A stretch of DNA of 64,000 bases from positions 1,134 through 65,133 of the IMG/VR virus record IMGVR_UViG_3300032220_001761. The stretch is one strand, 5' to 3'. The DNA is from a virus. Taxonomy: Duplodnaviria; Heunggongvirae; Uroviricota; Caudoviricetes. The notes beneath the pieces were generated by a model. That model searched no databases. It was not told the origin of the DNA and saw only the letters and a program-made list of their open reading frames with translations. A program made the position numbers and the translations under genes. This document shows, one piece after another, positions 27,128-43,929 of this stretch. Each line of letters starts with the position of its first letter. Position 1 is the stretch's first letter.

Positions 27128-27129
27128 TT

Positions 27130-28471: not shown

Positions 28472-28692
28472 AACCTATAACAGCTAAAGAAGCTAGAGAA
28501 ATAACTGATGCTTATTCCGAAGCGGGAATGGACGATATTCTAAAAAATATCAGAGAAGGTGCTGCTGGTGGAAATGACCATTTAACAATGGACTACGTTT
28601 CAAAAGGTCAAAAAAAGGTTTTGGAATCTCTTGGATATGGTGTTAATTGGCATGACATGGGGAGAGATGGGTATTGGAAAATTTCATGGTAA
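28468..28692 (+). CDS. hypothetical small protein
   Basis: 74-aa ORF, 4-bp overlap. Confidence 0.4.
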   Translation: MKPITAKEAREITDAYSEAGMDDILKNIREGAAGGNDHLTMDYVSKGQKKVLESLGYGVNWHDMGRDGYWKISW

Positions 28693-28736
28693 AAACAAGA
28701 AAATATTAATCAATACTATTTACACTGGAGTGGATA

Positions 28737-28925
28737 ATGGATAAAAAATTAGAATCTGAGTACATCTATTGGGTAAAGAGGCTAAGGCTCGAAGACCTTC
28801 ATACAGAAATGCAAAATATAGAGTGGGGGATTCAAAATATAAAATCCGAAAAAACTTTAGAAAATGTCCTTGTCAAAAAAGGAATACTCGAAAAAGAATA
28901 CGAAACAAGAAATAACAAGAAATAA
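28737..28925 (+). CDS. hypothetical small protein
   Basis: 62-aa ORF. Confidence 0.3.
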   Translation: MDKKLESEYIYWVKRLRLEDLHTEMQNIEWGIQNIKSEKTLENVLVKKGILEKEYETRNNKK

Positions 28926-28926
28926 A

Positions 28927-29418
28927 ATGGAAAAAAATAGCAAATACTATTTCTTCTATAAAACAAGGCATCCATTTTCCAATTGGCATCCATGTTCATT
29001 TGAAGACAAAGAAGGAAATCAATACACTTGCTCAGAGCAATACATGATGGCTCAGAAAGCTTTACTCTTTGGAGATAAAGAAATATTTGAAGAAATCATG
29101 GACGAACCGGATCCAAAATTTCAAAAAGAATTGGGAAGGAAGGTTAAAGGGTTCGATTCTAAGATATGGAACGATAATGCGAAAAGAATAGTTTATGAAG
29201 GATGTAAGCTTAAATTTGAACAAAATGAAAAGTTACTAAAAGTATTACTTGATACAAAAGGAACTTTTCTAGTAGAGGCTTCTCCATATGATAGAATCTG
29301 GGGTATAGGTCTTGGAGAAGACGATCCAGCAATACACGATCCTGCTAATTGGAATGGATTGAATTGGCTAGGTGAAGTTCTTACCGACTTAAGAGATGAC
29401 ATAATTAATAATCAATAA
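28927..29418 (+). CDS. NADAR-domain (YbiA-like) N-glycosidase / ADP-ribosyl glycohydrolase
   Basis: FSNWHPCSF...YTCSEQYMMAQKALLFGD...LGRKVKGFD...KFEQNEKLLKVLLDTKGTFLVEASPYDRIWGIGL matches the NADAR/YbiA family. Start set to Met at 28927, immediately after the preceding stop. Confidence 0.65.
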   Translation: MEKNSKYYFFYKTRHPFSNWHPCSFEDKEGNQYTCSEQYMMAQKALLFGDKEIFEEIMDEPDPKFQKELGRKVKGFDSKIWNDNAKRIVYEGCKLKFEQNEKLLKVLLDTKGTFLVEASPYDRIWGIGLGEDDPAIHDPANWNGLNWLGEVLTDLRDDIINNQ

Positions 29419-29430
29419 AAACAAAACAAA

Positions 29431-30993
29431 ATGTTCAAACCAAACAGTTTATTCTACAGCGACGGCTATAAGATTGGCCACAAAAAAATGCTTGCTAAAG
29501 GAACTTCTCGTCTTTATGGTACATGGATTCCTAGAAGCATTAAGCATGCTCCTAAAGGTGTTAAGAAAATCCTTTCATTCGGACAACAACTTGCAATGAA
29601 ATGGCTTCATGATGAATTTTCAGAAAACTTTTTTAAACTATCCAAAGAAGATGCAATGCAATTCGGAAATGATATGTCATTGTATCTTGGTATGGATTAT
29701 GATGCTTCGCACTTTGAAGCTCTTCATGATCTAGGATATCTTCCAATTCGTGTAAAATCTTTACCAGAGGGGATCGAGACTTTACCAAATATCCCTCATA
29801 TGACATTCATTAACACTCTTGATGGATTTGCTTGGCTTACTCTTTATCTTGAAACTATCATTTCTTCACTTTCTTGGAAGCCTTCAACTTCGGCAACCAT
29901 TGCATTACAATACAAAAGAAACGTGGTTGAATGGGTAATGAAAACGGATCCAGCAAATTCTTTCCTCATTCCTTTTCTTTGCCATGATTTTTCTGCTAGG
30001 GGATTAAGTCCTTGGGATATGTTATCAAGCGGTCTAGGACACGCTACATCATTTCTAGGATCTGATACAATCATTTGTATCCCAGGAGCACGTTACTTCT
30101 ATAACGAGCCTAATGACCAAGTTGCAATCTACTCTGTAAATGCTTCTGAACACTCCGTATCGACAACTAAGATTTTTACAGTTGGTGAACAACAAATGAT
30201 AGCGGATTGGTTGGTAGATTTTCCTAAAGGTATCTTATCAATTGTATCTGATACTTTTGACCTTTGGAAGTTAATCACCGAGTACTTACCAGCAAATAAA
30301 GAAGCTATCATGGCTCGTGACGGTAAGTTAGTTATTCGTCCCGATTCTGGTGATCCTGTTGATATTATTTGTGGAATCAATACAAGGAATGATCCTGATA
30401 ATCGTTACGTTAAATTAGCTGGTACTCCTGAATACAAAGGAGTAATTGAATTACTTTGGGACATCTTCGGTGGCACAACCAATGAACAGGGTTACAAAGT
30501 ACTAGATCCTCATATCGGAGCAATCTATGGGGATTCAATTAATTTGGATCGTCAAATTCAAATCTATGAAAGATTGGAAGCTAAAGGTTTTGCTGCAACT
30601 AACATTGTTTTAGGAGTAGGATCTTTTACGTACCAAATGAACACTAGAGATACTTTTGGTTTTGCAGCTAAAGGAGCTTGGTTCGAGGTTAAAGAAGAGA
30701 TTGGTCAAACAGTTGATACATTACAGCCAATTTACAAATACACTGGATTTGATATTTTTAAGGATCCTGTAACAGATGATGGTACTAAAAAATCTCTAAA
30801 AGGTATGGTTGCTGTATTTGAAAATGACGGAGACCATTATGTTAAGATTCAATGTACACAGGAAGAAGAGGAAACAGGATTACTACAAGTTATCTATGAA
30901 AATGGTAATTTTTATAACCAATCTTCATTAACTGAGATTAGAGCAAAAATCAATGAGCTTTGTAACGAAAAAGTTCTTGAAACAGAAATTTAA
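29431..30993 (+). CDS. nicotinamide phosphoribosyltransferase (NAMPT/NadV) family protein. Candidate nicotinamide-ADPR transferase (Namat)
   Basis: N-terminal SDGYKIGHKKM...GTSRLYGTWIPRS (TDSYK..H...YP.T...ys.R) and overall 520-aa NAMPT-like length. Confidence 0.8.
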   Translation: MFKPNSLFYSDGYKIGHKKMLAKGTSRLYGTWIPRSIKHAPKGVKKILSFGQQLAMKWLHDEFSENFFKLSKEDAMQFGNDMSLYLGMDYDASHFEALHDLGYLPIRVKSLPEGIETLPNIPHMTFINTLDGFAWLTLYLETIISSLSWKPSTSATIALQYKRNVVEWVMKTDPANSFLIPFLCHDFSARGLSPWDMLSSGLGHATSFLGSDTIICIPGARYFYNEPNDQVAIYSVNASEHSVSTTKIFTVGEQQMIADWLVDFPKGILSIVSDTFDLWKLITEYLPANKEAIMARDGKLVIRPDSGDPVDIICGINTRNDPDNRYVKLAGTPEYKGVIELLWDIFGGTTNEQGYKVLDPHIGAIYGDSINLDRQIQIYERLEAKGFAATNIVLGVGSFTYQMNTRDTFGFAAKGAWFEVKEEIGQTVDTLQPIYKYTGFDIFKDPVTDDGTKKSLKGMVAVFENDGDHYVKIQCTQEEEETGLLQVIYENGNFYNQSSLTEIRAKINELCNEKVLETEI

Positions 30994-31005
30994 TAAGTAT
31001 TGAAT

Positions 31006-31043
31006 CCTCTGCTGTAAATCCCCAACGGCAGAGGGTTTATTTT
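31006..31043 (+). terminator. rho-independent terminator after the NAMPT-like gene
   Basis: CCTCTGC...GCAGAGG stem followed by GTTTATTTT. Confidence 0.6.
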
Positions 31044-31075
31044 AAAGGGGTTTAATTTTTTTCAAATAAACAAAA

Positions 31076-32935
31076 ATGTTAGAAACAGTAATTCAGTATT
31101 GGTGGACAATTATTCCACTGTTAGCAATTGTATTCTACAAGTTTACATTGCGTGTATTTTTCGGGATGGTAATTATCCCGGAAGATAAAATCGGTTTGGT
31201 AACCAAAAAATTCGTTCTCTTCGGAGCAAACAAACAATTACCAGACGGAAAAATTATTGCTCTCAACGGAGAAGCAGGTTATCAAGCAAATGCTTTAGCT
31301 CCTGGTTTATACTGGGGTTACTGGGTTTGGCAGTTCTCTGTAGATCAAGCGGATCTTACAGTCATTCCTAAAGGGAAAATTGGTTTGTTGTCAGCAAAGG
31401 ACGGAACGCAACTTCCTACTGGTGCTATCCTTGCACGTCACGTAGAATGTGACAACTTCCAGGATACAGTTGCTTTCCTAAACAACAAGGGACAAAGAGG
31501 TAAACAGGTCGGTTATCTAAACAACGGGGTTTACCGTATTAATACATTCCTATTTGATATAGCAATTGCGGATATCACTTATATAGAAGACGGAATGGTT
31601 GGTGTTGTAACTACATTGGATGGAACACCATTAGATCAAGGAAACATTGCTGGTAAAGTTATTCCAGGACACAACAATTTCCAGGATTTTGATAAATTCT
31701 TAAGCAGTGGCGGACAACGTGGTCTACAAGAACAAGTAATTCAAGCTGGTAACTATTCTCTTAATCCTTGGGCAGTTGAGGTTGAAAAAGTTCCAATGAC
31801 AGAAATCGCTATTGGACACGTAGGTGTGGTAATTTCATATGTTGGGGACAAAGGCGAAGATTTAACTGGATCTGGCTTCAAGCATGGTAATATTGTTAGA
31901 GAAGGACAAAAAGGTGTATGTATTACTCCTTTCGATCCTGGTAAATATGCGGTTAACCCTTACACACATAAAATTGAAAGAGTCCCAACAACAAACCTTG
32001 TATTGAACTGGGCAAACGCAAGAACAGAATCGCATAACTTAGATAAGAGTTTAAGTACGATCACTGTTCGTTCAAAAGACGGCTTCCCGTTTAATCTTGA
32101 TGTATCCCAAATTATTCACATTCCTTCTACGGAAGCTCCGAAGGTGATTGCACGATTTGGATCTATGCAAAACTTGGTATCTCAAGTATTAGAGCCAACT
32201 ATCGGTAACTACTTCCGTAACTCTGCTCAAGGCTCAGATGTTATTGCTTTCTTAGCTACCCGACAAGATCGTCAAAATGCAGCTAAAGAAGCTATCAGTA
32301 AGGTTTTAGAGGAATACAACGTTCATGCGGTTGATACACTTATAGGTGATATAGTTCCACCTGATTCTCTAATGAAGACCTTAACCGACCGTAAGATTGC
32401 ACAGGAAGAAGAGGTAACTTTCGAAACACAGCGTAAAGCACAAGACCAACGTAAGACACTAGAGTCTGCTAAGGCTCTTGCTGATATGCAAGGTAAAATG
32501 GTAGCTGCACAACAATCAGTTGAAATCTCACAACGTGAAGCAGAAGCAGCAGTTAAGAAATCAGAAGGGGAAGCGAAAGCATTAGAACTTAAAGCTGGTG
32601 CTCAGGCAAAAGCTAAAAAGCTAATGGCTGAAGCTGATGCTGCTCAGATTAAATTAACAGGTGAAGCTGAAGCATCAAAAATTGCAGCAATTGGTAAATC
32701 TACAGCGGAAGCTTACGAGAAACAGGTTAAAGCAATGGGTGCAGATAACTTCGGTAAATTAAAAGTTACTGAGATGATAGGTACAAACGGAATCAAGATC
32801 ATTCCTGAGATTCTAATCTCTGGCAACGGAGATTCATCTCCGATTAATGGACTTTTAGGGATGGAACTTCTTAAGCAAATTCAAGAAAAGAAAGAAAAAT
32901 CTGGAAACATTAATGAGGGTAAGGTGATAGAATAA
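31076..32935 (+). CDS. flotillin/SPFH-family membrane protein (YqiK-like)
   Basis: N-terminal TM helix. Internally duplicated NFQD...GQRG.Q repeats. Ala/Glu/Lys-rich C-terminal coiled-coil region (AKALELKAGAQAKAKKLMAEADAAQIKLTGEAEASKIAAIGKSTAEAYEKQ) typical of bacterial flotillins. Confidence 0.65.
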   Translation: MLETVIQYWWTIIPLLAIVFYKFTLRVFFGMVIIPEDKIGLVTKKFVLFGANKQLPDGKIIALNGEAGYQANALAPGLYWGYWVWQFSVDQADLTVIPKGKIGLLSAKDGTQLPTGAILARHVECDNFQDTVAFLNNKGQRGKQVGYLNNGVYRINTFLFDIAIADITYIEDGMVGVVTTLDGTPLDQGNIAGKVIPGHNNFQDFDKFLSSGGQRGLQEQVIQAGNYSLNPWAVEVEKVPMTEIAIGHVGVVISYVGDKGEDLTGSGFKHGNIVREGQKGVCITPFDPGKYAVNPYTHKIERVPTTNLVLNWANARTESHNLDKSLSTITVRSKDGFPFNLDVSQIIHIPSTEAPKVIARFGSMQNLVSQVLEPTIGNYFRNSAQGSDVIAFLATRQDRQNAAKEAISKVLEEYNVHAVDTLIGDIVPPDSLMKTLTDRKIAQEEEVTFETQRKAQDQRKTLESAKALADMQGKMVAAQQSVEISQREAEAAVKKSEGEAKALELKAGAQAKAKKLMAEADAAQIKLTGEAEASKIAAIGKSTAEAYEKQVKAMGADNFGKLKVTEMIGTNGIKIIPEILISGNGDSSPINGLLGMELLKQIQEKKEKSGNINEGKVIE

Positions 32936-32938
32936 AGG

Positions 32939-33415
32939 ATGAAATTACAAGTCCTTAAACCAACTGACGGTGACTCTGTAAAAAACAGAGTCACCGTTTT
33001 TCTTGCAGGATCTATTGAGATGGGTGCTGCAGAAGATTGGCAAACAAAATTAGCCAACGATTTACAAGACATCCCGGTAACACTTTTTAACCCAAGAAGA
33101 GATTCTTGGGATTCTTCATGGGAGCAAAGAATGTCTAATCCAGAGTTCAGATACCAGGTAAACTGGGAGATGAACATGCTAGAATCTTCCGATATAATAT
33201 TTCTTTATCTTTCTCCGGAAACTAAATCCCCTATTTCACTACATGAATTAGGACTTCATGCTGACAGTGGAAAAATGATAGTTTGTTGTCCCGATGGATT
33301 TTGGAGAAAGGGAAACGTTGAAATAACTTGTGCTAGACACGGTATTCCTTTATACAACGATATAAACCATGCAAAGGATGCTTTAATCACGCTAATAAGC
33401 TCTAAAACAATATAA
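32939..33415 (+). CDS. nucleoside 2-deoxyribosyltransferase-like / DNPH1-like N-glycoside hydrolase fold protein
   Basis: VFLAGSIE (iYlAGP-type start), ...SLHELGLHADSGKMIV (catalytic-Glu ELG motif of the NDT/DNPH1 family). 3 bp after the flotillin stop. Confidence 0.5.
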   Translation: MKLQVLKPTDGDSVKNRVTVFLAGSIEMGAAEDWQTKLANDLQDIPVTLFNPRRDSWDSSWEQRMSNPEFRYQVNWEMNMLESSDIIFLYLSPETKSPISLHELGLHADSGKMIVCCPDGFWRKGNVEITCARHGIPLYNDINHAKDALITLISSKTI

Positions 33416-33416
33416 A

Positions 33417-34343
33417 ATGAATGATTTAAAATTTTTGAATACTGCCTTCGTAATAAAAAAGGACAGTAAAACAGGTGGGAACGGAACTATTACCTATATG
33501 GATTTAGAAATGTCACCATCTTCCGACAGGGTTGAAACCTGGGGACTTACAGAAGCAGGGGAAGCCCCACACGAACTTAGAATGGTTACTAGATCTAAAT
33601 TTTTTGAGCTTCAAAGATTTCAGGTAAAGTCGACATACCCTTCAGAACTTATATCTGATCTTAATTATTACCACGGAGTAGATGGTAATTCTATGATTGA
33701 TGAGGCATTGAATAATGAGATGGATCAATCTCTCATTAAAAATCTATACAAAAAATACAGTGAGATTGGAGAAATAACAAGGGTATCCCAATATACAAAA
33801 TGGCAAAAGTTCATTCTTAAAATCTCCCCTAAAATGATTTTTACCAATTATATTAAAGAGGATAGAAATGGATCTGAAATGCTCTATAATAAGATTGTGG
33901 TAGAAGCTAATAAGATAGCATCTAGAACAAGAATAAAACCAGGAGATTTTATTGTATGTGGTTCACTAGTAGGGTCTTTATTACAGGATCACCCAGGATT
34001 TTCATTCGAGTCATTAAATAACTCGATCTCTATGAAAACACCTAGCATAGACTATGTTGGAAACATTGCAGGAAGAATAGCTGTTTATGTTAATGCAAAT
34101 GAAAAGTTTAGTGATGGATGGGTAATTATAGGCAGAAAAACAAACACACATGAAACTGGTGTCTATTTTATTTATGAGGACAGAGAAAAAATTCAACTAG
34201 CGGATATAGATCCATCAAAAAATAAATTTGGTATAACACAAAGAGCTGCAATAGTTGATACCCACGGGGCAGAAAAATCATTTTCAAAAATACACTTCAC
34301 AGTGGGTAAAAAACCATTCTGGAAAAAACTTTTTAATATTTAA
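33417..34343 (+). CDS. hypothetical protein
   Basis: 308-aa ORF, 1 bp after the upstream stop. Confidence 0.5.
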   Translation: MNDLKFLNTAFVIKKDSKTGGNGTITYMDLEMSPSSDRVETWGLTEAGEAPHELRMVTRSKFFELQRFQVKSTYPSELISDLNYYHGVDGNSMIDEALNNEMDQSLIKNLYKKYSEIGEITRVSQYTKWQKFILKISPKMIFTNYIKEDRNGSEMLYNKIVVEANKIASRTRIKPGDFIVCGSLVGSLLQDHPGFSFESLNNSISMKTPSIDYVGNIAGRIAVYVNANEKFSDGWVIIGRKTNTHETGVYFIYEDREKIQLADIDPSKNKFGITQRAAIVDTHGAEKSFSKIHFTVGKKPFWKKLFNI

Positions 34344-34351
34344 AAAAATCC

Positions 34352-35845
34352 ATGGCTATCTTAGGAGATATTAAATATATCGACATGGATATTAATGATC
34401 CATTAGAATTTAAAGAATTCCCAGGGAGAATAGTTTTAGTTACTTCTTTTTTAGATATAGGGAGAGGAAACTGGAAGGATTATTCAAGAAATGCAGATAC
34501 CTATATAAGATCTTTTTTGAATTATCTAGATTATGAGTATGAGATGATAATATTCATAGACGAGAGATACCATAGTGAAATAGTCGGGTATTACAATGAA
34601 TCTAAGTATAAAAATAAAACGATAATCCCAATTAATAAGGATTGGTGCAATGAAAATTTAGATTCGTGGAAAAAGTTAAATTCCTATAATAACATAATGT
34701 CATCAGATTACTATAAAGGAATTGTAGGGCATAGGATAACATCAGGGTCTCCAGAAAATATATCACCAGAGTATAACATTATAAATCATTCAAAGATAGA
34801 TTTTTTAAAGTATTGTATAGATAACAGATTATCAGAATCTGATTTTTTCTGCTGGACTGATTTTGGATACTTCAATGCAATACTCCAAAATAATAATGAT
34901 TACTATCCTAAATCTATTTTAAGCAACAAGAAATTTAATTACGACAAGATAAGTTTTTTTCTTAGAAACAAAATAGAGGAGGTAGATGCAGATACTATCT
35001 ACACTCTAATAAATTCACCAGAGAAATTTACTGGATCATTTTGGGGTGGAAATACAAAAAATATAAATGCTCTTCATAGTTTATATCATGAATCTTTAGA
35101 TGAAATGATGGAGCAAAATATAGCTGACGACGATCAGCATGTATACCTAAAATGTTTTTTAAAAAATCCAGGAATTTTCCAACTGTACTTATCTAATAAA
35201 GAATGGCCAAAAGCTCTTAAATACATGGAGGACAAAAAATATTATACAGGGAAGAAATTTTTTGATTGCGGAACTCACTTTTTTGAAGGATTTGAGAAAT
35301 TCGCTAAAATGTATAATATTGATGATAAATGGAAATGCTATTGTTTCGAAGCTAATCCTATCACTTATTCGATGTCAATAAAAAAGATGAAAGAATTAAT
35401 AGGTGTGGGGCACAATATAGATTATTTCAATTTAGCAGTTACTAATAAAAACACAGAAATCAAAATAAACTGTGCATTAGATTCAGGATCTTTTACAAAT
35501 CAAGGATCAAATATATTAGATTCCCCGCCAGATAGAGACATAGTATATGGGGGTGTTTTTAATTATAACAGCGATTCTTTTTATGTTAGAGGATTAATAT
35601 TCTCAGACTTTCTAAAACAAACTGTAAATGAAGGAGATTTTGTTGTAATTAAAATGGACATAGAGGGATCTGAATTTGATGTTATGGATTCACTAATTGA
35701 AACTGGAACATTCAAACTTATAAGCCAGATTTATGTAGAATATCACGAAAGATTTTTTGAAGATGTTGAAGCTTATAGTGAGAAGAAAAAATCATACGAA
35801 AGAATATTCAAAGAACACAATATAGCAATAAAAGAATGGGAATAG
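34352..35845 (+). CDS. two-domain protein: N-terminal putative glycan-modifying domain plus C-terminal FkbM-family methyltransferase domain
   Basis: C-terminal FkbM blocks FDCGTHFFEGF...YCFEANPITY...NLAV...GDFVVIKMDIEGSEFDVM...IYVEYHE. Confidence 0.5.
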   Translation: MAILGDIKYIDMDINDPLEFKEFPGRIVLVTSFLDIGRGNWKDYSRNADTYIRSFLNYLDYEYEMIIFIDERYHSEIVGYYNESKYKNKTIIPINKDWCNENLDSWKKLNSYNNIMSSDYYKGIVGHRITSGSPENISPEYNIINHSKIDFLKYCIDNRLSESDFFCWTDFGYFNAILQNNNDYYPKSILSNKKFNYDKISFFLRNKIEEVDADTIYTLINSPEKFTGSFWGGNTKNINALHSLYHESLDEMMEQNIADDDQHVYLKCFLKNPGIFQLYLSNKEWPKALKYMEDKKYYTGKKFFDCGTHFFEGFEKFAKMYNIDDKWKCYCFEANPITYSMSIKKMKELIGVGHNIDYFNLAVTNKNTEIKINCALDSGSFTNQGSNILDSPPDRDIVYGGVFNYNSDSFYVRGLIFSDFLKQTVNEGDFVVIKMDIEGSEFDVMDSLIETGTFKLISQIYVEYHERFFEDVEAYSEKKKSYERIFKEHNIAIKEWE

Positions 35846-36420
35846 GAGAGCTTCACAGTCTAGGGATAAGATATGGAACTGACAAGGCAACATATCACGA
35901 TTATCTTAATTTTTACGAAAATAATATAGGTCATTTAAAAAACGAAAGGATTAATATTATGGAAATAGGATTTCTGCACGGGAATTCTATAAAAATGTGG
36001 CTAGATTACTTTACAAATGCTAGAATATATTGCTTAGATATTATAGATTGCTCTTTTACTCACGAAAGATTTCACTATATTAAGATATCACAGGATAATC
36101 CTATTTTAGATAATATTTTTCCAGATTCTTTTTTCGACTTAATTATAGATGATGGTAGTCATATGACATCACATCAGATAAAATCTTTAGAGATATTATG
36201 GAAAAAAGTAAAATCTCCAGGATTTTACATATTAGAGGATTTACATACATCATTTTCTAAGGAGTATGTTGATACTGAAATAACAGCATATGAAATAATA
36301 AATGGGGAGAAATCTATACAATCTATTTCTCCTATCATGGAAGAAACATCTTCTATTGAAATATTTAGAAAAAATCACGGGGTTGGTTCTAATAGTTTAA
36401 CCTCAATCTTAAAAAAATAA
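35836..36420 (+). CDS. SAM-dependent methyltransferase (CmcI/TylF-like)
   Basis: YGTDKATYHDYLNFY N-terminal motif and MEIGFLHGNSIKMW...ARIYCLDI SAM-binding region. Confidence 0.45.
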   Translation: MGIGELHSLGIRYGTDKATYHDYLNFYENNIGHLKNERINIMEIGFLHGNSIKMWLDYFTNARIYCLDIIDCSFTHERFHYIKISQDNPILDNIFPDSFFDLIIDDGSHMTSHQIKSLEILWKKVKSPGFYILEDLHTSFSKEYVDTEITAYEIINGEKSIQSISPIMEETSSIEIFRKNHGVGSNSLTSILKK

Positions 36421-36426
36421 AAAATT

Positions 36427-37008
36427 ATGGCGGTTTCCAGAAAAACATTTAGAATTTGCGAAAATTATTTCGTCTCTGGTAAAAAAATAGCTGAATTGGG
36501 ATCACAATTTGTTGTCGGTGAAGAATGGGGATCTTATGGTCCTCCATATTTTAAAGATGTTTTCAAACATCTTGACATAACATCATTTGATTACAATGGA
36601 GAGAATGGAGCAATAAAAGTAGATCTTTCCATTCCTATAGGCGAAGAATACAAAAATCAGTATGACATAGTCACTAATTTTGGAACAACAGAACATGTTT
36701 CAAATCAGCACACATGTTGGAAAAATATTTTTGATATGCTAAAACCTGATGGCTTAGTCATTAGCGAGATACCAAGAAAAAATAATTGGCCAAACCATTG
36801 TAAATACTATTATGACGAAGTTAGTTTTAATTCACTGTCGGATGATTTTATAATAATGGAAATCTCCAATATATTCTATGATGGACAAGGAGATTTAATC
36901 TATACGGTTTTAAGAAAAAAACATGATGGTGAATTTAAAACTACCACATACAATCTAATGAATTCTGTACAGGTTGATCAATATTTTGTAGACCCACAAG
37001 GACATTAA
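36427..37008 (+). CDS. hypothetical protein (possibly another methyltransferase-fold protein)
   Basis: 193-aa ORF, KKIAELGSQ.. weakly SAM-motif-like. Confidence 0.4.
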   Translation: MAVSRKTFRICENYFVSGKKIAELGSQFVVGEEWGSYGPPYFKDVFKHLDITSFDYNGENGAIKVDLSIPIGEEYKNQYDIVTNFGTTEHVSNQHTCWKNIFDMLKPDGLVISEIPRKNNWPNHCKYYYDEVSFNSLSDDFIIMEISNIFYDGQGDLIYTVLRKKHDGEFKTTTYNLMNSVQVDQYFVDPQGH

Positions 37009-37026
37009 AAATAAAAAAATAAAAAA

Positions 37027-38631
37027 ATGGATAAGTTAATAGATTGCTTCACATTCTATAATGAGCTAGATATGCTAGAGCTCAGATTTAGAGAGATATA
37101 TGATACTGTCGATAAATTCATAATAGTTGAAGCCGATAAAACATTCGGAGGAGAAAAAAAGCCTTTTTTACTGGATGAGAACATAGAAAGATTCTCTAAA
37201 TGGAGTGATAAAATAATTCATATCAAGATAAATTTTCCTAATATAGGATCAAATCCTTGGGACTATGAAAGGTATCAAAGGAATTCTTTCATGCAAGCTC
37301 TGTATTTTTTAGGATTGACAGATTCTGACAAGGTTATGATAACAGATGTTGATGAAATCCCAGATCCCAATACTATCTCATACATTAAGACTTATCCATT
37401 GAATGGAATTTATAAATTAGAGATGGATCATTATTTTGGTTCTTTTAGAAATAAAATGTCCAATCCGGAAAAATGGTATCATCCTAAGATAATGAATTGG
37501 GGGCATCTTAAAAATTCAACCCCAGATAACTGTAGATCCGACTTCAATTGCCAATGGTGGGAAAGAGGAGGATGGCATCTTTCTTATTTCGGAGGTCCAG
37601 AAAAGATATCAAAAAAGATTGGAAGTTTTTCTCATCAAGAATACAATAATGAAGTAATAAGGGATGTAAACAGGATATCAGATAAAATAAAATCTAACAG
37701 GGATTTTTTAGATGATTGGAGATCCTTCGTTAATATAAACCCGGAATCTAATCCTTATCTACCAAAAAATTGGAGAATACTTGAAAAATACGAAGAGGAG
37801 TATTTTCCTGAACTTTATGCTAAAAAAGATTTAGTCCTAGGATCTGCTATAAACATAGATCTAAATTCCATAATGACATTTATTAGGTCGTTGAGAAAAT
37901 ACAATAAAGAATGTAGCATATCAATCATAGTTGAAAATAATATAGACGAAGTTAAAAAATCTTCTATCAAAAAGGAGGGGGTAAATCTTATTTTTACATC
38001 AATCAGTACATTTTTAGAATCACCAATAAATAACATCAGATACCTAAAGTTTTTTGAATTTATCAAAGATCATGAAAATGAATATAAAAACGTATTGATC
38101 TCTGATGTTAGAGACGTTTATTTTCAAAATGATCCATTTAAAGGATTGGAAAAAAACTCAATATTCTTTGCTGAGGAGGATGAATCTAAGACAATAAAGG
38201 ATGATGATAGATTTAACTCGAGATGGATTAGACAAACATATGGGGATATTATTTTAGAGGATCTAAATAATGAAAAAATAACATGCTGTGGAACAGTAAT
38301 AGGATCATATAGAAACATATCAGCATATCTAGAATTTATGACTAATGAAATAATTAGATTCTATAAAGAGAAAAATCCTTTCTTTAATGATATGCTAGAC
38401 ACAGCAATTCATACCTATATTTATTACAAAAGGAGGGATTTGCTAGAAAATCCTTCTATGAAAAATAATGGGGATTTATTTGGGACAGTGGGAATAACGG
38501 TAAAAGAATTCCCAGATAAAATAACAATAAAGAATAATTTAATAGAGGTGAACGGAAAAATTCCTTCTATAATCCATCAATACGATAGGTCAGAATGGTT
38601 AAAAAAATTTATTAATCTAAATTCAAAATAA
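37027..38631 (+). CDS. glycosyltransferase family 17-like (bisecting-GlcNAc-transferase-like N-domain) with a C-terminal extension
   Basis: LIDCFTFYNELDMLELRFREIYDTVDKFIIVEADKTFGGEKKP matches the GT17 N-terminal signature (CF.F.NE.D.LE.R...L...VD.F.IVE...TF.G..K). Confidence 0.55.
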   Translation: MDKLIDCFTFYNELDMLELRFREIYDTVDKFIIVEADKTFGGEKKPFLLDENIERFSKWSDKIIHIKINFPNIGSNPWDYERYQRNSFMQALYFLGLTDSDKVMITDVDEIPDPNTISYIKTYPLNGIYKLEMDHYFGSFRNKMSNPEKWYHPKIMNWGHLKNSTPDNCRSDFNCQWWERGGWHLSYFGGPEKISKKIGSFSHQEYNNEVIRDVNRISDKIKSNRDFLDDWRSFVNINPESNPYLPKNWRILEKYEEEYFPELYAKKDLVLGSAINIDLNSIMTFIRSLRKYNKECSISIIVENNIDEVKKSSIKKEGVNLIFTSISTFLESPINNIRYLKFFEFIKDHENEYKNVLISDVRDVYFQNDPFKGLEKNSIFFAEEDESKTIKDDDRFNSRWIRQTYGDIILEDLNNEKITCCGTVIGSYRNISAYLEFMTNEIIRFYKEKNPFFNDMLDTAIHTYIYYKRRDLLENPSMKNNGDLFGTVGITVKEFPDKITIKNNLIEVNGKIPSIIHQYDRSEWLKKFINLNSK

Positions 38632-38637
38632 CAAAAA

Positions 38638-39183
38638 ATGAGAAATAAAATTTTCGACAAAATATGGGATCTACAGACTAAAGTCCCTACTATAAATAAG
38701 TTCTTCTCTTTTAGTCTTGAAGACTTACATGAAAATCCAGAAAAATGTCTGGAGGAGATAGAGCATTATCTAGAAAAACACGGAGATAAAATAGAGGATT
38801 TTTCATTCGAATCATGGATTGACGAAGATACCTTTAAGCCTGTTCTTATGTTAAAGATGGTACCTGTTGAAGAATTGGCGAAACATCTATTCCCTTCGAA
38901 TGTTCTAAACCTTCTTCTTCCCTCATCTAAAGAATCAGAGATCCTAAGAAATAGAATCACTTCAGTTCTTTCGAAATATGCTTTTGATTTTAACGATGAT
39001 GATACTAGAAAAGCTATGGCTAGTGATCTAGAATTCGTTCTTTCTGGGGTAGAAGTACTGGATAAAACCACATTTGAAAATATTGACAAAGGGATACTTA
39101 ATTTCATCGTAAGACACGATGATCATGAAATGACATTACAAGAGTATTTGGAGCTTGTAGCGGACAAAAAAAGATATGAATAA
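38638..39183 (+). CDS. hypothetical protein
   Basis: 181-aa ORF. Confidence 0.45.
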   Translation: MRNKIFDKIWDLQTKVPTINKFFSFSLEDLHENPEKCLEEIEHYLEKHGDKIEDFSFESWIDEDTFKPVLMLKMVPVEELAKHLFPSNVLNLLLPSSKESEILRNRITSVLSKYAFDFNDDDTRKAMASDLEFVLSGVEVLDKTTFENIDKGILNFIVRHDDHEMTLQEYLELVADKKRYE

Positions 39184-39574
39184 AGAGATTTTAAATATAG
39201 CTTTAATAGCACACGACGGAAAAAAAGCTGACATGGTTAGCTTTGTAGCGAAAAGGTTGGATTTTTTCAACAGAAATAGCGTAGAAATTTACGCTACAGG
39301 TACTACTGGTAAGTTTTTGAAGTTTGCCGGGATACAAAAAGTTCATCCTATGCTCAGTGGGCCTAACGGTGGAGATGCACAAATAGGTGCTATGGTTGCA
39401 GAAGGAAAAATAAAGGCTGTGCTCTTTTTTAGAGATCCTTTGAATCCACACCCACATGAACCAGATATACAGATGTTAATGAGAATATGTGATGTTCACA
39501 CTGTTCCTTTAGCAACTAATTACATGACAGCAAAATATGTAATAGACTGGTTTGATACTAATATCCCTGAATAA
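39176..39574 (+). CDS. mgsA: methylglyoxal synthase
   Basis: Collinear with E. coli MgsA: IALIAHDGKKADMV, YATGTTGKF, MLSGPNGGDAQIGAMVAEGKI, LFFRDPLNPHPHEPD, PLATN. The catalytic His-Asp and GGD residues are conserved. Confidence 0.8.
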   Translation: MNKEILNIALIAHDGKKADMVSFVAKRLDFFNRNSVEIYATGTTGKFLKFAGIQKVHPMLSGPNGGDAQIGAMVAEGKIKAVLFFRDPLNPHPHEPDIQMLMRICDVHTVPLATNYMTAKYVIDWFDTNIPE

Positions 39575-39611
39575 TTTCAAGGTATATCACATATAGGATA
39601 TTTTAATTGGA

Positions 39612-40715
39612 TTATGAGAAGTTTTCAGATATTTGATTATCTTCAAATGATCCGCCAGCTCCGGCACCTCCAAAATGACCCCCTCCAAAATGTGTTTCGT
39701 GTTTATCTTCAAATAGGGTAGAACCATCTCCAACTACTTCTCTTAACAGGAAATAGTTTATCATATAATTTTGATCATCTAAATTATTGGTTAGATATAA
39801 ACCATTTTCGTCAGTTTCTGTAATACTCTTAGCTTTAGGCGTAAAGTCTTGGATTCTTTTCAGATAGCTTCTTTTGGTTAAATCCCCGTGCCATATATGA
39901 AAAAGATTTCCTTTAACATATCCAATCTTTCCTTGTACAACCCAATAGAATTTTGATGACCATCCGTTTACATTTCCGAGATCATCAGAAAAAGATTTGG
40001 CTATACATGAGTGACCAATTTGGCCTGCTGCTGCATGTGCAATTATATGATCCGCTCCACCGACCAAGGCTTTATCGAAAAGTGGAACCTCCTCTAATAC
40101 TTCTCTTCTTGCACCCCATGCAAATCCTACATGACCGTGGATATCATAATTTTCTCTGGCAGATAGATGTTTAGAGTAAACGTAATTAGCGCAGAAGCTT
40201 CTCCACATATCAGGATGCCTTAAATCTTTATCCATGGAAAACTTCTTGTGATTTTCAAAATCAAAATTGGGTTTGTCCATATCTTTTTGAAGATGAATGC
40301 ACCATTCAAAAGGTTGAATAATCTTATTAGAATGAAGTTCTTGAACTCCTTCTACTATCCAATTTTCGTTGTCAAAAATAACATCCGCGTCTACCCAGAA
40401 AACAAATTTATATTCCTCTGGAAGTGTTGAAACTATTTTATTCAAAAGCGATTCCTTGTGCCATAGGAGATTTTTTGTTCTTATGACAGATACATTCTTG
40501 AGATGAGAAAACTCCGGTGAATCTTCACCAATTACACACTCAATAATCCTGAAATTTGTGTGCTTAATAGATTCATAGAATTTCATGAATGCTTTTCTTC
40601 GATACTCAGATTTCTGAGGGTTAAAGAAGCAAGAAATTATAACAGCCTCCGGATGGGATTTGTATCCAGATTGTTTTTGTTTTTTAAAAAAATTTGAAAA
40701 GAACATTTTATGCAA
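39612..40715 (-). CDS. putative GT-A-fold glycosyltransferase with glycine-rich C-terminus
   Basis: FVFWVDADVIF (DxD-type motif), overall nucleotide-diphospho-sugar transferase-like. C-terminal HFGGGHFGGAGAGGSF. Confidence 0.4.
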   Translation of the reverse strand: MHKMFFSNFFKKQKQSGYKSHPEAVIISCFFNPQKSEYRRKAFMKFYESIKHTNFRIIECVIGEDSPEFSHLKNVSVIRTKNLLWHKESLLNKIVSTLPEEYKFVFWVDADVIFDNENWIVEGVQELHSNKIIQPFEWCIHLQKDMDKPNFDFENHKKFSMDKDLRHPDMWRSFCANYVYSKHLSARENYDIHGHVGFAWGARREVLEEVPLFDKALVGGADHIIAHAAAGQIGHSCIAKSFSDDLGNVNGWSSKFYWVVQGKIGYVKGNLFHIWHGDLTKRSYLKRIQDFTPKAKSITETDENGLYLTNNLDDQNYMINYFLLREVVGDGSTLFEDKHETHFGGGHFGGAGAGGSFEDNQISENFS

Positions 40716-41214
40716 GTCTTAAGGGTGATAAAAATTTTCTCAATGCAACTATTTTTTCGGCTTCCTGTGGATCTGATGAAAAATTCTCGACCCAAGAATC
40801 ATAAGGGGGGATAAAATCACCGCCTCCGGCCTTGGCGTAGTCTGAAACGATCTTTTCGTAATCTGTCCAGTTTTCCTTATCCCAAACTCTATCTTCTACC
40901 AAGAAAACAACAGCTGTTAATTGATCTCCTAGATCTGGCTCATAGAATAAAGCGACCTTCTTTTCACCAATCAGCATTCTTAAAAATGAAGCATGTTGAT
41001 TAAGAGTACCAGGAGAAATTGGATTTGTACTTGTTGTGCCTCCATTTAAGATGATAAAGGTCTTATCCTCTTTAGCCCATCTTTGGTATTCAGGTGTTTC
41101 TCCATAGAGTAACCCATACTCAACTACTGCATGTCCAAATTGTATCCCTTGTTGGATAGGACTGATGTTATATGGGACTAACCCATACATTCTATATTTT
41201 CTTTCTGTATTCAT
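40708..41214 (-). CDS. hypothetical protein, possibly a divergent PTH2-fold protein
   Basis: YGLVPYNISPIQQGIQFGHAVVEY and ALFYEPDLGDQLTAVVF loosely parallel the PTH2 blocks (DL.M..GK.AAQ..HA and DAGRTQI..GS.TV.AIGP). Confidence 0.35.
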   Translation of the reverse strand: MNTERKYRMYGLVPYNISPIQQGIQFGHAVVEYGLLYGETPEYQRWAKEDKTFIILNGGTTSTNPISPGTLNQHASFLRMLIGEKKVALFYEPDLGDQLTAVVFLVEDRVWDKENWTDYEKIVSDYAKAGGGDFIPPYDSWVENFSSDPQEAEKIVALRKFLSPLRLA

Positions 41215-41948
41215 TGCTTTTCAAATGTTGGTTTTAACCATAATCCCCTACCAAAAACTAGTTTAGTAAATCCTGGAAGTACTTCTTCTACAGATCTGAA
41301 AAGCTCTAGTGTTCTAACAGTATCAGCTTTCATCATCTTGTAAACTTCCTCCCTGATTCTTTCAGCACTAACCACCTTTTCTAATTTTTCAAGGATATCA
41401 GGCTGGTTCATTGCATTCATGATGTCAAGATGAATATCAAATCCCTTAGTAATTGAGAATCTCAAAGCTCTTAAGAATCTCAAAGGATCGTCCATCATAG
41501 TTTTGTATGCGGGCAGGGGGGTTCTCAAAATTCTTCTCTCGAGATCCTTTACCCCTCCGAATAGATCTATCAGATTACCATCGACATCTTTTGCCATGGC
41601 ATTAAGAGTAAAATCTCTTCGGATCAAATCGTCTTCAAGTGTTCCTAGAACAAGAATAGGGTTTCTTGTCCCTTCTTGGTATCCTATCTCTTTCCTAGCC
41701 ATAACAAAGTCAGCGACTAGGCCATTGAATTTATGATCCTTTGGAAACTTAGCTCTAATCGTAAACATTTCTGGAGTAGACAAGAATATTTCGTATCCCC
41801 TTTCTTTCATCCATTGCGTCATCTCATCGAATCCCTCACCTACAGTCTTGTTTAGATCATCAAGAACAAAGGTAAAGTCAATATCCTTAGATTCGATACC
41901 TAGTATCTCATCTCTTACGCATCCTCCTACAAAAAATATCTCTGGCAT
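41211..41948 (-). CDS. tRNA nucleotidyltransferase (CCA/CC/A-adding enzyme, class II head-and-neck only)
   Basis: IFFVGGCVRDEILG..SKDIDFTF (GGxVRD...DxD), RRDFTLNAMA, DPLRFLRALRF. Confidence 0.8.
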   Translation of the reverse strand: MPEIFFVGGCVRDEILGIESKDIDFTFVLDDLNKTVGEGFDEMTQWMKERGYEIFLSTPEMFTIRAKFPKDHKFNGLVADFVMARKEIGYQEGTRNPILVLGTLEDDLIRRDFTLNAMAKDVDGNLIDLFGGVKDLERRILRTPLPAYKTMMDDPLRFLRALRFSITKGFDIHLDIMNAMNQPDILEKLEKVVSAERIREEVYKMMKADTVRTLELFRSVEEVLPGFTKLVFGRGLWLKPTFEKQ

Positions 41949-42010: not shown

Positions 42011-42670
42011 TTATTTTGATTCGTCTCTTTGCTTATCATTAAAATCAAGATCCTTTGAAATCTGATCTAGATCAAAATCTGATAGATTCAAAGAAGCAAG
42101 TTTAGAGCTTCTGTATTTCTTCATGTTGCTAGAAACGCTCTGGAAAACATTAGAAGTAGAAAGATCATTGCTCGAATAGTTAATCGAGTTAGATCCTTTA
42201 ATACCAATAGAACCACCTGCTTGTATTGCGTCCTGATTTGCAGCCAAGAATAAGAATTTCCATCCCTCGTTGGTTTGAGTCTCAATCATTTTCATGATAG
42301 CCTCTCTCTTGTAAGTTCTGCTAGCATTTTCTTCTCCATCTGTGATGATTACAAAAATCACGTCACGGTCGGTTTTTAGATCCTCAATTGTTTTACCAAT
42401 TGCATCAAGAAGAGCAGTAGATCCACGTGGAATAAATGTCTCATTCAACACTAGGTTATCCACGTTTTTAACAGGTACGCTCTGATAGTTCATCTCGTAT
42501 CTGTCATCGAATTGTACAAGGGTAACAAATGCTTCGCCCTCTGCATTTTTTTGTTCGTCAAGGAATTTATTAAACCCTTCTACAGTTGCTTTATCAATTC
42601 CTCTCATTGACCCAGATCGGTCTAGCACCATAACGATCTCAGTCTGTGCTAATTTTTTTTCTTCTTTCAT
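42011..42670 (-). CDS. von Willebrand factor A domain protein
   Basis: MIDAS motif VMVLDRSGSM, plus ...TALLDAIG... and VIFVIITDGEEN. Confidence 0.7.
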   Translation of the reverse strand: MKEEKKLAQTEIVMVLDRSGSMRGIDKATVEGFNKFLDEQKNAEGEAFVTLVQFDDRYEMNYQSVPVKNVDNLVLNETFIPRGSTALLDAIGKTIEDLKTDRDVIFVIITDGEENASRTYKREAIMKMIETQTNEGWKFLFLAANQDAIQAGGSIGIKGSNSINYSSNDLSTSNVFQSVSSNMKKYRSSKLASLNLSDFDLDQISKDLDFNDKQRDESK

Positions 42671-43929
42671 TTTGTAAATATTTGTTTAACACTGGAAATT
42701 AAATTATTCCATTTTTTCTTTATAGAGTCTTTTACAGAAAGAATTCGGTTATCGATTCTTTTTATAAGTTCCTCCTCGTCTGTAACTATATTATTAACCA
42801 CTGCCCAGTAACAAAGACCAAATGTCAAGAGAATAGTAATTATATAGGTTGTAATTATAGCCCAGGTTGGGGGATCGACAGTAACGTAATTAAACTCTTT
42901 GAAATCCTTTCTTTCAAAGTCTTTCATGCTCTTATCGATAGCTGCTGTTATTCTTTCTGGATTAAACATATCAATGTTCACGATATCCTCTCTTAGATTA
43001 ACCAGGATCTCTCTATTAGGTGTCCAAGAAAAGGCCTTAACCCATTGCATATGGTTAGTAGCAGATGAAAGACCTATACAGACAACAAGATCATTGTCGT
43101 TTCCTCCGTCCCAGTAAGATTCTTGCATTAAAGCTGCAGTTTGTGGTTGATCCTGGAATAAAAGTACCCATATCTTCCCGTGTTTTTTCGGTCCCCAATA
43201 CCCAGATGAATATTGCAATAACCTATCGAATGTCCATTTATCATTATCGCTAATCCATTGGATAGAATCCTCTCCAAGTAAAACGTCTTGTCTGAATTCG
43301 TTCAATTCGGGGTAATCGTACAGTTTGTATGTTTTCTTATCGTCTTCAGAAACCTCCGGGAAATCAAATGCTGAATGAGCAGCTTGTATTCTGTTTTCGT
43401 ACCAATGTGAAGTTACTGTTTGTTCAGAAGTAAGATGGTTTTTATCCCAATAGATTTCATACTTATCTCCGTCTTGTCCGCAAGATCCGTTATAATTTAT
43501 ACTTCTATTTAATTCTACAAATTGAAGGCTTGCTTTCCATCTTTTTTGCAGTTCCGTATAGAAATCCCTATTGATAGAAAATGATTCTCCTAGATCATTA
43601 ACCACCTTATATTGTGGAGGATTTTCATCGCAGTATGAACAATCATAATAAACTGTAGTTGTGGTTTTACCAACTTTGACTGTTCTACTACATGTTTTAT
43701 GAACCCATGTTGTGTAGGGCTCGTAATACTCAGCTTTTACTACTAATGCAGAATGATATTCAGTATCTGTAGTTTCGATCTTCTCCACACTAAATTTAAA
43801 AATAAGGGTAAAGATCAAACAAGCAAGAATTGGAATTAAAACTTCCCACCAAGCCAAATGTGATCTAAACCACCTTAGCATAATAAAAGCTCCAATCAAT
43901 GGAATTAAAAGAGACAGCCAGATTACCAT
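42667..43929 (-). CDS. large membrane protein with an extracytoplasmic domain
   Basis: Two N-terminal TM helices and one C-terminal TM helix. Cys-rich middle domain. 4-bp overlap with the vWA gene. Confidence 0.5.
   Translation of the reverse strand: MVIWLSLLIPLIGAFIMLRWFRSHLAWWEVLIPILACLIFTLIFKFSVEKIETTDTEYHSALVVKAEYYEPYTTWVHKTCSRTVKVGKTTTTVYYDCSYCDENPPQYKVVNDLGESFSINRDFYTELQKRWKASLQFVELNRSINYNGSCGQDGDKYEIYWDKNHLTSEQTVTSHWYENRIQAAHSAFDFPEVSEDDKKTYKLYDYPELNEFRQDVLLGEDSIQWISDNDKWTFDRLLQYSSGYWGPKKHGKIWVLLFQDQPQTAALMQESYWDGGNDNDLVVCIGLSSATNHMQWVKAFSWTPNREILVNLREDIVNIDMFNPERITAAIDKSMKDFERKDFKEFNYVTVDPPTWAIITTYIITILLTFGLCYWAVVNNIVTDEEELIKRIDNRILSVKDSIKKKWNNLISSVKQIFTK

Follow-up and report, generated by a model that had tools for sequence, protein, structure and literature searches.

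Surveys over two decades have recorded glycan gene clusters in large aquatic phages, while the products and targets of these clusters have not been determined; described examples include those of the gp23-type phages P-SSM2, S-SCSM1 and S-B05 (PMC7824862, PMC12801897). In actinobacteriophages, glycosylation of the virion by phage glycosyltransferases (GTs) has been established experimentally for Che8, Corndog and Myrna (summarised in PMC12363180), and the Cluster J phages Omega and LittleE have loci of this type by gene content (PMC3706429). Chlorovirus PBCV-1 and Mimivirus carry methyl-capped glycans on their capsid proteins or fibrils (PMC9614988, PMC7826918). Here we analyse positions 33417-40715 of a 64,000-nucleotide stretch of DNA (positions 1,134 to 65,133 of IMG/VR record IMGVR_UViG_3300032220_001761; hereafter the window) from an uncultured freshwater phage. 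An initial annotation had described this region as an island of glycan modification genes. Profile searches do confirm GT and methyltransferase (MT) families, with assignments far beyond chance, and the region encodes at least four GT domains and three S-adenosylmethionine (SAM)-dependent MT domains. However, three of its genes are not glycan genes: those for a truncated homolog of the gp23 capsid protein (gp23L), a conserved protein (unk181) and a methylglyoxal synthase. The island is therefore composite: only 34352-38631 is a variable glyco-methyl cassette, and the minus-strand GT (GTA_Gly) lies in a separate conserved block. The cassette, variable in content, is inserted at one fixed position, between the gp23-like gene and a GT17-unk181 pair, and its enzymes very probably make a single O-methylated glycan together.

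A variable cassette at a fixed site

The plus strand from 29431 to 39574 is a single tightly packed run, with gaps of -10 to +82 nucleotides (nt). All open reading frames (ORFs) named in the initial annotation are uninterrupted, and their plus-strand gaps are tight or overlapping (-10 to +18 nt). The region was compared with related and other viral contig loci, which are denoted by L-numbers, and 87 GT17-bearing loci were surveyed. The relatives L083 and L085 have in common the order NAMPT–Band7–nucleoside 2-deoxyribosyltransferase-like gene (NDT)–(Y07B)–gp23L–GT17–unk181–…–GTA_Gly–hydrolase–CCA enzyme. Relative to this backbone, the genes HtrL-FkbM, MT24 and MT23 form an insertion between gp23L and GT17. 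As separate genes at this site they are present only in this phage among the relatives compared: HtrL-FkbM is missing at the corresponding position in both L083 and L085, and MT23 was found, among the fetched loci, only in copies of the same phage. The GT17–unk181 pair is invariant, with unk181 directly 3′ of GT17 in seven of seven distinct loci (the window, L003, L004, L005, L006, L083 and L085). The GC fraction is 0.27-0.29 in HtrL-FkbM (0.288), MT24, MT23 and the GT-A domain of the GT17 protein (GT17x), compared with 0.33-0.40 in the flanks and 0.32 in the GT17 domain. A further sign that the spot is a gene-exchange hotspot is an R2K-clade ATP-grasp gene, which in L083 and L085 separates the minus-strand GT from unk181 or the methylglyoxal synthase gene and is absent from the window.

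The domains of the cassette are also found fused in other arrangements. In L085, one 753-aa protein consists of an MT24 homolog (31% identity to MT24, 6e-13), a GT17 domain and the same GT-A domain (50% identity over 530 residues). The GT17 protein of L083 has a different, unrecognised C-terminal domain, while L004-L006 encode the GT17 domain alone; the lengths of the GT17 proteins in relatives are 259, 501, 534 or 753 aa. An MT24-type MT lies within 10 kb in 19 of the 87 GT17-bearing viral loci. Because the same domain set recurs as single polypeptides, the cassette enzymes very probably belong to a common pathway for an O-methylated glycan. Both the confirmed folds and families and the domain fusions in related and unrelated viral contigs give good support to the proposal of a methylated glycan that the phage would build or remodel.

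Some viral ORFs take this arrangement much further. Giant ORFs of 1,979-2,991 aa string together up to eleven GT and MT domains, and may be described as 'glycan megasynthase' polyproteins. The ORF of L069, at 2,991 aa, contains GT17 three times, GT2 five times, Methyltransf_24 twice and FkbM once; that of L046 combines GT2, TPR, GT17 and two FkbM domains, and that of L041 GT2, DUF5672, GT17 and GT1.

The first gene of the cassette had been described as a two-domain FkbM methyltransferase. One of its domains does match the FkbM family (PF05050/TIGR01444), at 45.5 bits against the Pfam cut-off of 22.7 and, for NCBIfam fkbM_fam, at 36.9 bits, slightly below the cut-off of 37.7. The other domain, however, belongs to HtrL/YibB (PF09612; 111.4 bits against a cut-off of 24.1, profile positions 3-259 of 267), and is a putative GT of a family seen in lipooligosaccharide (LOS) loci. 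It is not an ortholog of E. coli YibB, scoring 112.9 bits against a cut-off of 264.9 with TIGR02192 and 80.7 against 342 with NF008462. Among cultured phages, HtrL-like matches were obtained only for two Campylobacter phages, and an IMG/VR pattern scan with HtrL-FkbM gave no confirmed relatives.

The two following genes were predicted to encode a CmcI/TylF-like O-methyltransferase and another possible MT, and both predictions hold. MT24 is, by its profile and structure-database matches, a homolog of the TylE/MycE/CmcI-type sugar O-methyltransferases; its score against Pfam Methyltransf_24 is 20.3 bits, under the cut-off of 26.3. Its best cultured-phage homolog is gp17 of mycobacteriophage Omega (37% identity, 1e-23). 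MT23 matches Methyltransf_11 (1.6e-4) in addition to the family from which it takes its name.

GT17x had been proposed to be a GT17-like enzyme with an extension, and this is upheld. The GT17 domain, of the MGAT3-like CAZy family GT17, scores 116.3 bits against the Glyco_transf_17 (PF04724) cut-off of 26, and a D107-V-D109 motif, read from the sequence, is kept in the L083 and L085 proteins. We found 232 GT17 relatives in viral contigs, from phages as well as giant-virus metagenome-assembled genomes (MAGs). To our knowledge, no non-eukaryotic GT17 has been characterised. The C-terminal domain has a Rossmann-like GT-A fold with a conserved DxD; its D360-V-R-D363 is invariant and an HQYDR motif lies close to the C-terminus. 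It resembles retaining GT6/GT8/LH3 enzymes, and its structural neighbours include LH3 collagen GT, Mimivirus R699 and PBCV-1 A64R. In view of the GT-A fold, the invariant D-V-R-D and the agreement of predicted viral structures with this assignment, GT17x is predicted to be a bifunctional enzyme with two GT activities.

The acceptor of the glycan

The proteins of the island, those of the cassette included, have no hydrophobic segment (maximum KD19 in the cassette <1.3), and a scan of the island and of about 60 ORFs of the window revealed no flippase, polymerase, initiating transferase, glycan exporter or nucleoside diphosphate (NDP)-sugar synthesis gene. We propose that HtrL-FkbM, MT24, MT23 and the bifunctional GT17x would act as soluble cytoplasmic enzymes, drawing on the nucleotide-sugar and SAM pools of the host to assemble a short oligosaccharide stepwise, which would then be capped by O-methylation. 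The glycan would be added to a protein synthesised in the course of infection, most likely one of the virion; the true capsid or tail proteins are candidates, as is the truncated gp23-like protein encoded next to the cassette. Progeny particles would then carry a methylated glycan coat, comparable to the glycosylated capsids and tails of mycobacteriophages and to the capsid glycans that multidomain GT-GT-MT enzymes make in chloroviruses. Of the options considered, a phage (virion) protein is the most likely acceptor, although we favour it only tentatively.

Of the acceptors suggested by the initial annotation, virion or protein glycosylation gains some support, from gene-neighbourhood parallels, whereas seroconversion and DNA are disfavoured. 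In Omega, the gene for gp17 ends the order major head protein–two-domain GT–MT, and in Cluster J phages GT and MT domains split and fuse beside the capsid gene (PMC3706429). Gordonia phage GMA2 has its GT17 homolog between the terminase and structural genes. Enzymes that glycosylate proteins (LH3, Mimivirus R699 and PBCV-1 A64R) are also among the structural neighbours of the GT-A domain. In keeping with a protein-type acceptor, gp23L, GT17 and unk181 stay adjacent across two genome contexts: gp23L adjoins GT17 in L004-L006, L083 and L085, and precedes the GT17-unk181 pair in six of seven distinct loci. Upstream of gp23L, NDT is found in the window, L005, L083 and L085, and a sigma factor in L004.

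The nature of gp23L bears directly on this proposal. The 308-aa protein matches Pfam Gp23 at profile positions 149-349 of 376, and the profile of its family matches the structure of T4 gp23 in the PDB (1e-14) over residues 243-451 of 521. It is without the N-terminal ~240 residues, which presumably include the N-arm, E-loop and insertion domain of T4 gp23, and its neighbours are metabolic genes. Family members form a coherent group of roughly 290-320 aa (358 representatives at E ≤ 1e-3). In cultured phages, gp23L matches fall in the C-terminal half of major capsid proteins (MCPs) of 585-616 aa, encoded within head or morphogenesis modules. On account of the missing N-terminus and of these matches we rejected gp23L as an actual capsid protein, and regard it as a truncated paralog. 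The true MCP is not encoded in the window. No full-length MCP was found on the contigs bearing the gp23L, GT17 and unk181 trio, a profile scan giving 80 loci of ~575-aa large-phage MCPs that all lie elsewhere; the label 'paralog' consequently rests on the truncation and gene context. IMG/VR pattern scans with gp23L and with a long-MCP representative gave no confirmed relatives, and the alignment of the gp23L family was too divergent to seed a scan. Truncated gp23 proteins of this family occur outside the head modules of large uncultured phages, often near an NDT-like gene (members in Table 1). Possible roles of the family are as a decoration protein, assembly factor or decoy, and next to the glyco-methyl cassette gp23L is a possible acceptor or partner.

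Several points weigh against a virion acceptor. The cassette lies in an early or metabolic region (NAD salvage, SPFH, tRNA repair), outside any morphogenesis module. The phages with demonstrated glycosylation do not include Omega itself, and gp23L is a truncated paralog and not the capsid gene. L003, which is syntenic with L004, keeps GT17x-unk181 but is without gp23L, and L084 encodes a divergent gp23L (27% identity) without a neighbouring GT; the association of gp23L with GTs may be inherited gene order only. In view of L003 and L084, the link between gp23L and the glycan is suggestive, not established.

Other points count against a virion acceptor by favouring the host surface instead. As the second most likely option, though a somewhat doubtful one, the enzymes may remodel the host envelope, acting at the cytoplasmic face on lipid-linked intermediates, LOS or lipopolysaccharide (LPS) core, or capsule precursors, to which they would add and methyl-cap sugars. 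The altered surface would, in long infection or pseudolysogeny, block superinfection or re-adsorption of progeny to doomed cells. The HtrL_YibB family is known only from LOS/LPS loci (PMC4172580), and GT8-like folds are likewise typical of LOS and LPS core synthesis. GT17 homologs of the cyanomyoviruses S-B05 and S-H68 lie in 'LPS-type' dTDP-sugar clusters with RmlB, RmlC, epimerase, O-methyltransferase and GT11 genes. The published view of large-phage clusters is also one of host-surface modification: Iyer et al. 2021 read the polymorphic GT clusters of gp23-type jumbo phages as diversifying surface polysaccharides against superinfection, and note smaller enzyme sets outside cyanophages (PMC7824862). 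Cluster variation between close relatives fits such an arms-race trait. Nevertheless, the island and the scanned part of the window contain no membrane component, flippase, polymerase, ligase, ABC (ATP-binding cassette) glycan exporter or NDP-sugar gene, the soluble multidomain fusions are no less similar to the capsid-glycan enzymes of viruses than to those of LPS synthesis, and the closest cultured-phage homolog of MT24, in Omega, and the GMA2 GT17 are located among virion genes. Classical seroconversion in particular is disfavoured, given the lack of a membrane, flippase or polymerase component and a phage that is large and T4-type, not temperate.

DNA is a very unlikely acceptor. In this case the GTs would glycosylate hydroxylated or hydroxymethylated pyrimidines, with later methylation, and the phage would evade restriction. 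Large T4-type phages commonly glycosylate their DNA, and GT-A enzymes like LPS GT8 and PBCV-1 A64R add secondary sugars to 5-hydroxymethylcytosine glycans (bioRxiv 10.1101/2023.12.21.572611). An NDT-like gene lies two genes upstream, and the giant fusion of L069 has a weak match to TET-associated GTs. Against this, the window ORFs scanned include no 5mYOX/TET, C5-MT, dCMP hydroxymethylase or DNA-binding GT-B enzyme, and the only ThyA homolog of the window retains the catalytic Cys and the dUMP-specifying Asn (PFNIASY), which makes it an ordinary dTMP synthase. This 412-aa protein has large insertions compared with the 266-position Pfam profile; a role as hydroxymethylase was considered and rejected, since the Asn is retained. 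GT17 and HtrL are without DNA-linked precedent in the literature consulted, and we know of no sugar O-methylation of DNA glycans, which counts against this option as well.

A more specific version of the protein-acceptor proposal takes the gp23-like–GT17–unk181 unit, with swappable GT and MT add-ons, as a module that large Bacteroidota phages would devote to protein glycosylation. In this version the truncated homolog, or the capsid to which it docks, would be the acceptor, and virions would display a strain-variable coat of methyl-capped glycans. We regard this version as speculative and rather unlikely.

Adjoining genes, phage type and host

The convergent GT-A protein with a Gly-rich tail, GTA_Gly, was found as predicted, with a corrected start. 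Because residues upstream of the internal Met chosen by the gene caller (324 aa) are nearly invariant in the family, translation likely begins at the ATG at 40706 (364 aa), and not at that Met or the TTG at 40715. GTA_Gly has a GT-A fold with an invariant DxD, and scores 14.3 bits against Pfam Glycos_transf_2, below the cut-off of 23.3. Its motifs are WVDADV, HGHVGFAWGA, GGADHIIAHAA and HIWHGD (family invariants DAD, HGHVGFAW, GGADHI.AHA and HIWHGD), and its disordered, Gly-rich tail ends in a family-conserved ENFS. The family is very large and unannotated, with >824 matches, the top 120 of which are 52-92% identical. Further copies occur in L118, L117, L109, L101 and L103, and phage and MAG copies carry the ENFS tail.

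In five Flavobacterium isolate genomes, tail-less homologs of GTA_Gly (52-58% identity) adjoin a C39-peptidase/thioredoxin protein; four of the five also have a C39-ABC exporter and HlyD, and three a VKOR-thioredoxin protein and DUF6625. We take these neighbourhoods to resemble glycocin or bacteriocin loci, and by analogy they point to a peptide or protein as the acceptor of the GTA_Gly family. The idea that the Gly-rich tail is a fused copy of a separately encoded substrate peptide was dropped, as the Flavobacterium clusters contain no Gly-rich or ENFS-ending small ORF.

These homologs also bear on the question of whether the target of the phage enzymes is a diffusible metabolite or a ribosomal peptide, which they would glycosylate and methylate in the manner of glycocins or macrolide sugars, or whether the genes are no more than unrelated neighbours. 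Both ideas are improbable. The export context of the Flavobacterium GTs speaks for the former, as does the fact that the closest solved relatives of MT24 methylate deoxysugars on macrolides; Iyer et al. likewise suggest that cyanophage clusters may make a sugar-derived secondary metabolite (PMC7824862). However, precursor peptide, exporter, polyketide and aglycone genes are all missing from the phage locus, and no Gly-rich precursor peptide is present in the Flavobacterium clusters. The repeated fusion of GT17, GT2 and MT domains argues for a single polymer or oligomer assembly line, and against unrelated neighbours. The phage GTA_Gly itself has no glycocin-type neighbours, and in the phage clade the gene travels with a hydrolase and a CCA-adding enzyme in a conserved minus-strand block. 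On these grounds it is treated as a neighbour of the cassette, and is probably a separate peptide- or protein-directed GT outside the cassette assembly line. The minus-strand block continues with genes for a VWA protein and a 420-aa membrane protein (phrog_2087); hydrolase, CCA enzyme, VWA and membrane-protein genes are conserved in relatives and unrelated to glycans.

Two further genes of the plus-strand run follow the cassette. The product of unk181 is acidic, with a mean column identity of 65% and invariant WIDE.T..P and PSS.E motifs; it gave no Pfam, PHROG, PADLOC or PDB match. The last gene of the run encodes methylglyoxal synthase, a non-glycan enzyme that is also present in L085. It scores 159.2 bits against the NF003559 cut-off of 84 and 149.2 against the TIGR00160 cut-off of 146.9. 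Its HD…GTTG…GGD…DPL..PH.PD motifs look intact by comparison with E. coli MgsA. From its assignment, the phage enzyme could poison or reprogramme host glycolysis. In a full-text search for phage-encoded or jumbo-phage methylglyoxal synthase, none of the eight top matches listed named the enzyme.

Of the two additional GT2 genes reported in the initial annotation, the one at 61278-61973 is solid (55 bits) and lies 20 kb from the island. The other, at 1165-1737, is borderline: it scores 22.3 bits against a cut-off of 23.3, with 54 residues matched (7-60 only).

The window has a low GC content of 33.8%. A Logan assembly and a metagenome assembly of lake type (ENA ERZ28594567, scaffold_224, 57.8 kb) both contain an identical sequence, while megablast of the region against 50,697 phage records returned nothing, so there is no close cultured relative at the DNA level. 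A Dda-like helicase, RNA ligase, CCA-adding enzyme, own sigma factor, NAD-salvage block and gp23-type capsid homolog identify the source as a large T4-type phage, which agrees with 'group 2' as defined by Iyer et al. 2021 (PMC7824862). The genes have A-rich leaders without Shine-Dalgarno sequences, which, together with the Flavobacterium homologs of GTA_Gly, suggests a Bacteroidota host, probably Flavobacterium-like. Sigma-70-family factors recur in this phage group (Table 1). These factors and the leaders are compatible with large Bacteroidota phages such as the 'moraphages', as a candidate lineage only. Upstream of gp23L lies an NAD-related block (phosphoribosyltransferase, YqeY-like, NADAR and NAMPT genes), followed by the gene for an SPFH/Band-7 protein of 619 aa that has a hydrophobic segment near its N-terminus; L083 and L085 also have the block and the Band-7 gene. 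A search of the window for tRNAs was negative, and the 37-nt convergent gap contains no terminator. With 63 sites against an expectation of 58, a scan for sigma-70 promoters gave no useful information, and PADLOC gave no match for the ten proteins submitted, which provides no link to a defence system.

Table 1 Coordinates of the cassette, its neighbours and related features in the window and in other viral loci
Feature	Sequence	Coordinates	Strand	Evidence
gp23L, 308-aa truncated gp23 capsid homolog	window	33417-34343	+	Pfam Gp23 5e-18
HtrL/YibB domain + FkbM methyltransferase	window	34352-35845	+	7e-32 and 1e-11
HtrL/YibB domain, residues ~27-286	window	34430-35209	+	Pfam HtrL_YibB 7.4e-32
FkbM domain, residues ~305-476	window	35264-35779	+	Pfam Methyltransf_21 1.2e-11
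MT24, sugar O-methyltransferase homolog	window	35836-36420	+	PHROG 21658 methyltransferase 3.7e-30; demethylmacrocin O-methyltransferase (TylE-type, 8ia9) 1.9e-18; MycE (3ssm) 4.1e-16
MT23, class-I methyltransferase	window	36427-37008	+	Pfam Methyltransf_23 9e-7
GT17x, GT17 domain + ~270-residue extension	window	37027-38631	+	
GT17 domain, aa 3-229	window	37027-37773	+	Pfam Glyco_transf_17 2.1e-33
GT-A domain of GT17x	window	37819-38631	+	GT-A fold
unk181, conserved unknown	window	38638-39183	+	no family match
Methylglyoxal synthase	window	39176-39574	+	two NCBIfam equivalogs over cut-off; Pfam MGS 4.9e-16
GTA_Gly, GT2-like GT-A, Gly-rich tail	window	39612-40706	-	GT-A fold + motifs
phrog_3668 'hydrolase', short 245-aa CCA-adding/poly(A) polymerase-family nucleotidyltransferase, VWA protein, membrane protein	window	40708-41948, 42011-43929	-	
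Separate GT2-family GT	window	61278-61973	-	Pfam Glycos_transf_2 1.2e-14
Possible GT2 N-terminal fragment-like protein	window	1165-1737	-	borderline Glycos_transf_2 1.4e-4
Thymidylate synthase	window	4590-5828	-	catalytic Cys and Asn kept
Sigma-70-family factor	window	12422-13294	+	
NAD-related block, then SPFH/Band-7 protein	window	26231-32935	+	
gp23L family members	L004; L083; L085; L091	9116-10000; 10001-10930; 10001-10933; 1784-2389		
Sigma-70-family factors	L003; L004; L091	8822-9700; 7832-8710; 15736-16602		
R2K-clade ATP-grasp	L083; L085	13009-13731; 14178-14900	-	
Methylglyoxal synthase	L085	13796-14194		
GTA_Gly family copy	L118	6001-7011		
Giant GT/MT ORFs	L069; L046; L041	7736-16708; 5435-12598; 5846-11782		

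Comparison with known glycan systems

The interest of the locus lies in its compactness: it combines four to five GT domains with three MT domains, it has no sugar-synthesis genes, its natural fusions indicate which enzymes cooperate, a candidate protein partner is adjacent, and both shorter and longer relatives are available. With a virion protein as acceptor, the known range of phage capsid glycosylation would widen from mycobacteriophages to include phages of environmental Gram-negative bacteria, and phage and giant-virus glycan machineries would be linked. Should the dedicated protein-glycosylation module prove true, it would be the first virion-glycosylation system outside the actinobacteriophages, with a GT17/GT-A/MT toolkit as in giant viruses. 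If the acceptor is instead the host envelope, the locus would be a minimal system for studying how phages mask receptors in Flavobacteria. The 364-aa Gly-tailed GT family, which is highly conserved, merits a study of its own.

Among giant viruses, PBCV-1 (A064R, A111/114R) and Mimivirus likewise have soluble multidomain proteins combining at least two GTs with a sugar MT, and GT17 relatives are common in giant-virus MAGs. The similarity is, however, at the level of the fold only (8-16% identity), GT17 and HtrL are not described in the review consulted on these systems, and the hosts are eukaryotes. Among the actinobacteriophage virion loci, MT24 has its relative in the MCP-GT-MT order of Omega. 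There too a GT and a SAM-dependent MT directly follow a capsid-type gene, and two-domain GTs and MT-GT fusions are split in some relatives and joined in others. The neighbour in those phages is the real major capsid gene within a morphogenesis module, whereas the present neighbour is a truncated paralog of 308 aa within a metabolic region; the two sets of phages have unrelated hosts (Actinobacteria as opposed to probable Bacteroidota), and the present locus is known from its genes alone.

The sublancin-type glycocin locus, sunA/sunT/bdbA/sunS/bdbB, combines a GT2 peptide GT with a C39-ABC exporter and thiol-disulfide oxidoreductases. By gene context it is matched by the Flavobacterium homologs of GTA_Gly, which sit beside a C39-ABC exporter, HlyD and VKOR/thioredoxin. 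The phage GTA_Gly is without those neighbours, has the ENFS-ending Gly-rich tail that is missing in the Flavobacterium copies, and is accompanied by no precursor peptide that we could find.

The large gp23-type phages offer the nearest parallel. Their clusters also combine several diverse GTs with O-methyltransferases in T4-type phages, their gene content is polymorphic between close relatives, and those of S-B05 and S-H68 pair a GT17 homolog with an O-methyltransferase. The present cluster differs in being much smaller, in having no NDP-sugar synthesis genes (epimerase/dehydratase, nucleotidyltransferase or kinase), and in its bifunctional fusions (HtrL with FkbM, GT17 with GT-A) beside a truncated capsid paralog. 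Its host is probably a member of the Bacteroidota and not a cyanobacterium, and the function of the cyanophage clusters is also putative. The locus is best filed as a compact and unusually fused form of the glycan clusters already known in large gp23-type phages.

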